64,000 nt of DNA from Escherichia coli (GTDB taxonomy: Bacteria > Pseudomonadota > Gammaproteobacteria > Enterobacterales > Enterobacteriaceae). Every line of letters starts with the position of its first letter. Within the stretch, counting starts at the first letter, position 1. The stretch is taken from the NCBI RefSeq assembly GCF_002854065.1, contig NZ_CP024147.1, one strand, 5' to 3'. The notes beneath the pieces were generated by a model. The model was not told the origin of the DNA and ran no database searches. It worked only from the letters and a program-made list of their open reading frames with translations. This document shows, in pieces, positions 60,653 to 61,432 of this stretch. The position numbers were made by a program, and so were the translations under genes.

Positions 60653-61432
60653 TCAGATAAAGTGCTTACGCAACCGTTGAGAGAGGAAATCCAGCAGGCT
60701 GACCGTGACGATAATCAGCACCATCAGGGCGCAGGTTTGCTGGAACTGGAAACCGCGAATCGCTTCCCACAGGGTGACGCCGATCCCGCCTGCGCCGACC
60801 ATGCCGACGACGGTCGCCGAGCGGACGTTGGATTCGAAACGATAGAGGGAGTAGGAGATCAGCAGCGGCATCACCTGTGGCAGCACGCCGTAGAGGATCT
60901 CTTCGAGCTTGTTGGCACCGGTGGCGCGAATGCGTTCCACCGGGCCGGGTTCAATCGCTTCCACCGCTTCGGAAAGCAGCTTGGAGAGCACGCCGGTGGT
61001 GTGGATAAACAGCGCCAGCACGCCAGCGAATGGGCCGAGGCCGACGGCGACCACGAACAGCATGGCGAAGACCATTTCGTTAATGGCGCGGCAGGCATCC
61101 ATCAGGCGGCGAACGGGCTGGTAAACCCACCACGGCACCAGGTTTTCGGCGCTCATCAGGCCGAAGGGGATGGAGAGAACCACCGCCAGCGCCGTGCCCC
61201 AGACGGCGATTTGCAGCGTGACGGCCATTTCGGTGAGGTAATCCTGCCACTGGCTGAAATCGGGCGGGAAGAAGTCGGCGGCGAACGTCGCCATGTTGCC
61301 GCCGTCTTTAATCAGCGTGAGCGGGGCCATTTCCGCGCCCTGCCACGAGACAACCAGCACGGCGAGAACAATGGCCCAGCTCAGAAGCGAGAACCAGCTG
61401 CGCTTGGGTGGGGCGATGGTGATGGTTTGCAT
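60653..61432 (-). CDS. phnE: phosphonate ABC transporter permease (apparently intact)
   Basis: 259 aa from [19 protein letters not shown], uninterrupted to stop. Confidence 0.85.

Follow-up and report, generated by a model that had tools for sequence, protein, structure and literature searches.

An in-frame, two-copy phnE in a structurally complete phn operon of Escherichia coli carries arginine at a conserved position of the predicted coupling helix

Introduction

In Escherichia coli K-12 phnE is cryptic due to an 8-bp insertion, and slippage yields revertants (PMC6469041). One of these K-12 revertants lacks the 5'-GCTGGCGT at positions 407-414 (PMC6469041). Knowledge of the insertion and of how slippage reverts it goes back to 1991, according to the older work cited in PMC6469041. 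RefSeq lists phnE of K-12 MG1655, the cryptic phn(EcoK) allele, as a pseudogene of 788 nt that is "frameshifted". BL21 (E. coli B) has phn(EcoB), the classical functional allele; its phnE (WP_001193500.1) is annotated as intact with a length of 780 nt.

Within PhnCDE, the ABC importer for phosphonates, PhnE is the membrane subunit, and its EAA coupling helix would dock the permease into the PhnC ATPase. In ABC importers, the coupling helix with the EAA motif fits into a cleft of the ATPase (PMC3971661; PMC6906923). The same two papers describe paired EAA mutations in MalF and MalG that abolished transport and released MalK. Effects of single EAA substitutions in MalF, MalG or AraP were often mild (PMC5730181). 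PhnCDE carries phosphate too (PMC6469041), and therefore the true status of the transporter could also affect phenotype predictions.

The solved structure closest to PhnE, both in sequence and in fold, is MetI of the methionine importer MetNI (PDB 3dhw, 3tui, 3tuj), a type I importer permease with its EAA loop in the same place. Here, we compare the phnE gene of one E. coli strain with these systems and ask how far an open reading frame speaks for an active importer.

Results

The phnE gene and the phn operon

The window, a stretch of 64,000 nucleotides of contig NZ_CP024147.1 (assembly GCF_002854065.1), contains an uninterrupted open reading frame of 780 nt (259 codons plus stop) at 60653..61432 on the minus strand; a GGAG is located 6 nt 5' of the ATG. 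A preliminary description of this DNA had reported an intact phnE of 259 aa at exactly these coordinates, with the strand left out, and had proposed an alignment with the K-12 gene as a check. In an alignment with the genes of K-12 and BL21 the frame stayed open and no internal frameshift was seen in the window copy. A hidden frameshift or other lesion is ruled out, as the sole difference in length among the three genes is the additional 8 bp of K-12.

The deduced protein scored 307.9 bits against the NCBIfam equivalog model for PhnE, TIGR01097, well above the curated cutoff of 216.7, and the match ran over nearly the full profile, from position 8 to 251 of 252. At the DNA level, annotated phnE of 5,393 E. 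coli records is 95-100% identical to the gene, and strain 100416 has an identical gene of 780 nt that is phnE according to its RefSeq annotation. The profile score together with the identity to annotated phnE argues that the open reading frame is not a chance frame. The neighbours also agree with this assignment: phnC and phnD are found next to the gene and the order is phnC-phnD-phnE-phnF...phnP, with the same annotation in strain 100416. A longer version of 280 aa in the mechanical list of open reading frames, starting from a GTG at 61495, was dismissed because its extra part falls within a REP palindrome. The features of the operon are:

60653..61432, minus strand: phnE coding sequence, identified by open reading frame, profile match and alignment
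61448..61534, no strand assigned: pair of REP-like palindromes (inverted repeats I1-I4) in inverted orientation, filling the gap between phnD and phnE
61538..62554, minus strand: phnD, periplasmic binding protein of 338 aa, full length (tblastn 1-338 of 338, 99.1%, no gaps)
62579..63367, minus strand: phnC, ATPase of 262 aa, full length (tblastn; strain comparison)
59907..60632, minus strand: phnF, GntR-type regulator of 241 aa, full length (tblastn; per-gene check)
52554..59906, minus strand: phnG-H-I-J-K-L-M-N-O-P, ten genes of the C-P lyase pathway, full length (tblastn)
63368..63499, minus strand: control region upstream of phnC, one base off K-12, towards the yjdN side of the region (alignment)

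The 13 other Phn proteins of K-12 (C, D, F to P) matched the window end to end with 96.4-100% identity in tblastn and in a check of each gene, without gaps or internal stops. Thus all 14 genes from phnC to phnP are present, ordered and full length. Lesions elsewhere in the operon were looked for, but none was found in the 13 other genes, which are collinear with K-12. The complete phnGHIJKLMNOP C-P lyase set that had been described before is indeed there, with all ten genes at full length. The 132 bp 5' of phnC differ from K-12 by a single base. At ~63412-63444 this upstream region has CTGTTAGTCAC...CGTCAC, which may be the Pho box of a PhoB-dependent promoter.

The 8-bp repeat and its frequency in E. 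coli

A three-way alignment located the difference between the alleles. After nt 405 of the gene K-12 has three tandem copies of an 8-bp unit, GCTGGCGT GCTGGCGT GCTGGCGC, whereas the window and BL21 have only two, GCTGGCGT GCTGGCGC:

61012..61027, minus strand: two tandem 8-bp copies GCTGGCGT GCTGGCGC, nt 406-421 of the gene (alignment; K-12 annotation; PMC6469041)

The statement in the preliminary description that a short duplication makes phnE cryptic in K-12 agrees with the extra copy of GCTGGCGT in K-12, with the RefSeq frameshift flag and with the literature (PMC6469041). The third copy in K-12 shifts the frame after codon 135. Since it is missing from the window, where two copies lie in an open frame, the mechanism that makes phnE cryptic in K-12 does not apply to this strain. 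Apart from the repeat, gene and context correspond to those of K-12, with 96.8% nucleotide identity. Length, number of repeat copies and operon order are shared with E. coli B, and 257 of 259 residues are identical; the two proteins differ only by V21I and G167R and the genes by ~2.8% at the nucleotide level (97.2% identity). With its two copies retained, window phnE would in principle still be open to slippage as described for K-12; the gain or loss of a copy could then switch the gene off.

To determine the number of copies in the species, a probe of 124 nt that spans the three copies of K-12 was run against 5,394 complete E. coli records. At an identity of at least 95%, 1,009 of the 5,394 records matched. 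The remaining ~4,385 fell into lower identity bands, and all full-coverage matches listed from them had the two-copy length. Therefore, a two-copy, in-frame phnE is present in ~81% of the 5,394 records and the three-copy K-12 type in ~19%, a figure that is inflated by laboratory derivatives of K-12, although the three-copy allele also occurs in isolates from chicken, pig and human. A probe taken from the window had been used earlier and was set aside, because its 90-95% band mixed three-copy alleles with divergent two-copy alleles; the K-12 probe separates them. An intact two-copy phnE is thus the majority state in E. coli, and the intact gene is less notable than had been implied in the preliminary description.

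Other variation of phnE and of the phn operon

In addition to the 8-bp repeat, natural E. coli PhnE proteins vary in length. Five variants (P0046, P0030, P0062, P0003 and P0001) have deletions of 25, 18 or 35 aa or duplications of 25 or 54 aa. With the 25-aa deletion (TGVLS...GIRA; 234 aa, 126 contigs) the first half of the EAA loop is lost, and the reciprocal duplication of 25 aa gives a protein of 284 aa. In an alignment with the five variants, PhnE of the window had the canonical 259 aa, with no in-frame deletion or duplication within residues 92-181. This collection of variants suggests that phnE is recurrently rearranged in E. coli and is an often-altered gene.

Lesions in other phn genes were found in two of seven unrelated comparison strains, an in-frame deletion in phnM of O145:NM FWSEC0002 and a frameshift in phnP of strain Q5. 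In the former (locus L015, 15505..16227) phnM is shortened to 723 nt, in the latter (locus L016) the frameshifted phnP lies at 17621..18405, and phnE is intact in both. A count based on phnE only will therefore overestimate phosphonate competence.

Position 167 lies in the predicted coupling helix

Of the two substitutions that separate window PhnE from the E. coli B protein, G167R falls into the loop that is expected to contact the ATPase:

60878..60937, minus strand: EAA-loop region, residues 166-185 (E-R-I-R-A-T-G...G-V-L-P), with the conserved G172 and P185 (HMMER alignment; column counts; AF2 helix 162-170)
60932..60934, minus strand: codon 167, CGC (Arg), which is GGC (Gly) in other E. 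coli; position two of the EAA motif, midway along the predicted coupling helix

In a HMMER alignment to solved permeases, E166-R167-I168 take the place of "EAA" in the EAA-X3-G-X9-I-X-LP loop, opposite E-A-S of MetI and E-A-A of an amino-acid permease from Thermoanaerobacter (PDB 4yms). A single-sequence AF2 model had a pLDDT of 52.7 and was discarded; the alignment-based model used instead (pLDDT 83.9) predicts a short helix for residues 162-170 that is flanked by two long ones and precedes the conserved G172. Its top Foldseek match is MetI (TM 0.78, normalised to the target), and model and match together point to a type I importer permease fold whose last cytoplasmic loop contains a short coupling helix. 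MetI differs from PhnE in its substrate, has only ~20% sequence identity and carries Ala where window PhnE has Arg.

Glycine was found at position 167 in all 100 close orthologues, down to 72% identity. Among 245 diverse PhnE-like domains the position was A in 166, G in 55 and S in 13, in sum 234 of 245 (95.5%); ten had L, V, F, N or T, and the lone R was at the end of a truncated alignment. At the second EAA position, where A, G or S would be the canonical small residue, window PhnE has R167. The Glu, Gly and Pro of the motif are kept as E166, G172 and P185; of the diverse domains, 242 of 244 share this Gly and 230 of 240 this Pro.

A probe of 41 nt that can seed only on the arginine codon identified Arg at codon 167 in two of 5,426 complete genomes, those of strains 100416 from Gambia and CUWW06 from Thailand. 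The exact PhnE protein of the window was found on 152 contigs (NCBI, ENA, JGI, Logan). A compensating change in PhnC was not detected: in a comparison with seven diverse strains, no PhnC substitution was confined to the lineage, and G127R, which separates the window from K-12, is a shared polymorphism.

The R167 lineage

PhnE of strain 100416, from stool in Gambia, and of strain CUWW06, from wastewater in Thailand (WP_032282051.1), is identical to that of the window, including R167, and the surrounding DNA is 99.93-99.98% identical; the same range was obtained for the window against six other loci with this PhnE. The lineage is geographically spread, with occurrences in Gambia, in Thailand, in an NCTC strain and in metagenomes. 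Two synonymous differences, in phnO (L129; window 53362) and phnP (T154; window 52851), set the window apart from each of the six further lineage loci examined. Among the E. coli strains compared, only the lineage has PhnJ H230Y. This change was considered as a C-P lyase defect and rejected, since 28 of 120 orthologues also have Tyr and Cys241, 244, 266 and 272 are retained.

CUWW06 (L006) and 11 of the 24 lineage contigs read make up a sub-lineage in which phnD lacks 31 bp (window 62321..62351) and phnF has a stop codon, Q192* (window 60059), together with the same R167 PhnE (also locus L009). In 13 of the 24 contigs, phnC through phnP are full length. An NCTC assembly has a 1-bp indel in phnN. 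None of these three lesions, the phnD deletion, phnF Q192* and the phnN indel, is present in the window. Within the lineage, seven sequences of the operon contained six non-synonymous or nonsense changes, five synonymous changes and two indels, from which relaxed selection is not clearly shown. The lesions in phnD, phnF and phnN would fit neutral decay after a loss of transport, though the pattern is not specific.

Discussion

The reading that accounts best for these data, to which we assign a probability of about 90%, is that the window holds an ordinary in-frame, two-copy phnE in a structurally complete phnCDEFGHIJKLMNOP operon, that this gene is not cryptic in the manner of K-12 and that PhnE is probably made and inserted normally, with a chance of ~50-55% that G167R weakens or abolishes its coupling to PhnC. 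Frame, repeat number, operon completeness and population frequency are direct observations; how PhnE functions we infer from the sequence. The preliminary description had gone one step further and had assumed an active PhnCDE importer and a probably functional uptake of phosphonates. The structural part of this statement stands, with the frame intact and the operon complete, but an open frame is not the same as activity. With G167R at a conserved position of ATPase docking, uptake cannot be assumed to work. The odds that the exchange weakens or abolishes coupling to PhnC appear to be close to even, with a slight lean towards a defect. The operon has no permease gene other than phnE, so that a transporter with two copies of PhnE is to be expected, in which R167 would be present at both ATPase interfaces.

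At its strongest, such a defect would render the importer cryptic by missense: G167R would disrupt the docking of PhnE to PhnC, the lineage would be phosphonate-negative despite an open frame, and the lesions in phnD and phnF of the sub-lineage would be later neutral decay. We consider this an even bet. The conservation of G167 and its position in the loop, the rarity of the R167 allele and the damage to phnD and phnF in CUWW06 and 11 of 24 contigs, with the phnN indel in one, all speak for it, as do the many independent inactivations and rearrangements of phnE in E. coli, from the 8-bp insertion to the 25-, 18- and 35-aa deletions and the duplications. However, phn lesions also occur in two of the seven comparison strains, which do not have R167, and decay is thus not specific to the R167 lineage. 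Furthermore, the ratio of non-synonymous to synonymous changes within the lineage is uninformative, the phnN indel may be an assembly error, and the R167 allele persists in a geographically spread lineage in which 13 of 24 contigs have phnC to phnP at full length.

The opposite possibility, with a weight just short of an even chance, is that G167R is neutral and PhnCDE fully active, and that the strain imports and uses phosphonates under phosphate limitation. Intact frame, complete operon and the K-12-like region upstream of phnC are what would be expected in this case. The maintenance of the allele on 152 contigs, the occasional non-small residue at position 167 (10 of 245 domains) and the often mild outcome of single EAA substitutions (PMC5730181) point in the same direction. 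Against full activity stand the location of residue 167 within the coupling helix and the near absence of Arg at this position in 345 homologous domains. A PhnE dimer, as deduced from the single permease gene, would moreover expose R167 to both ATPases, and PhnC has no private change that could compensate.

That R167 is a sequencing or assembly error and G167 the true allele would require only a single-base difference, but is extremely improbable and effectively refuted by independent recurrence, with the same codon in two independent complete genomes and the exact protein on 152 contigs.

Thus, an ordinary two-copy phnE in a complete operon, with a coupling helix of doubtful competence, remains the reading that we prefer. 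It is tempting to speculate that PhnCDE is silenced or crippled in nature by G167R, a mutation of the coupling helix, and that a globally distributed lineage of E. coli has become phosphonate-negative by a missense route, with neutral decay of phnD and phnF possibly following; we regard this as somewhat less than evenly probable. If G167R silences PhnCDE, this would be one more independent way in which phnE is switched off, and one that is invisible to annotation based on gene presence and reading frame. Pipelines and metabolic predictions that equate "phnE intact" with "phosphonate uptake positive" could then be wrong for this lineage. As a natural variant, R167 can also readily serve to test how strict the need for a small second EAA residue is when both permease subunits of a transporter are identical. 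Beyond bookkeeping the importance is slight, as the K-12 insertion has long been known and an intact phnE is usual in E. coli.

Three further observations were made elsewhere in the window. The gene aphA, encoding a class B acid phosphatase (3666..4379, plus strand), has an internal stop at codon 180 (KSQ*LQD), and the same "internal stop" is flagged by PGAP in aphA of strain 100416. Two identical direct copies of IS1, whose starts are 1,398 bp apart, interrupt the pentapeptide-repeat gene espX5 at 16002..18167, with transposase reading frames at 16017..16520 and 17415..17918, whereas espX5 is intact in the near-identical strain 100416; the window is therefore derived from another strain of this lineage. 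Downstream of phnP and yjdP, at ~42171..52060, the window has genes for a GNAT acetyltransferase, a hybrid sensor kinase, a sugar ABC transporter, a D-lyxose/D-mannose isomerase, an aldolase, a kinase and a response regulator, which are not found in K-12 at this spot; there, K-12 has rpiB and the als genes.
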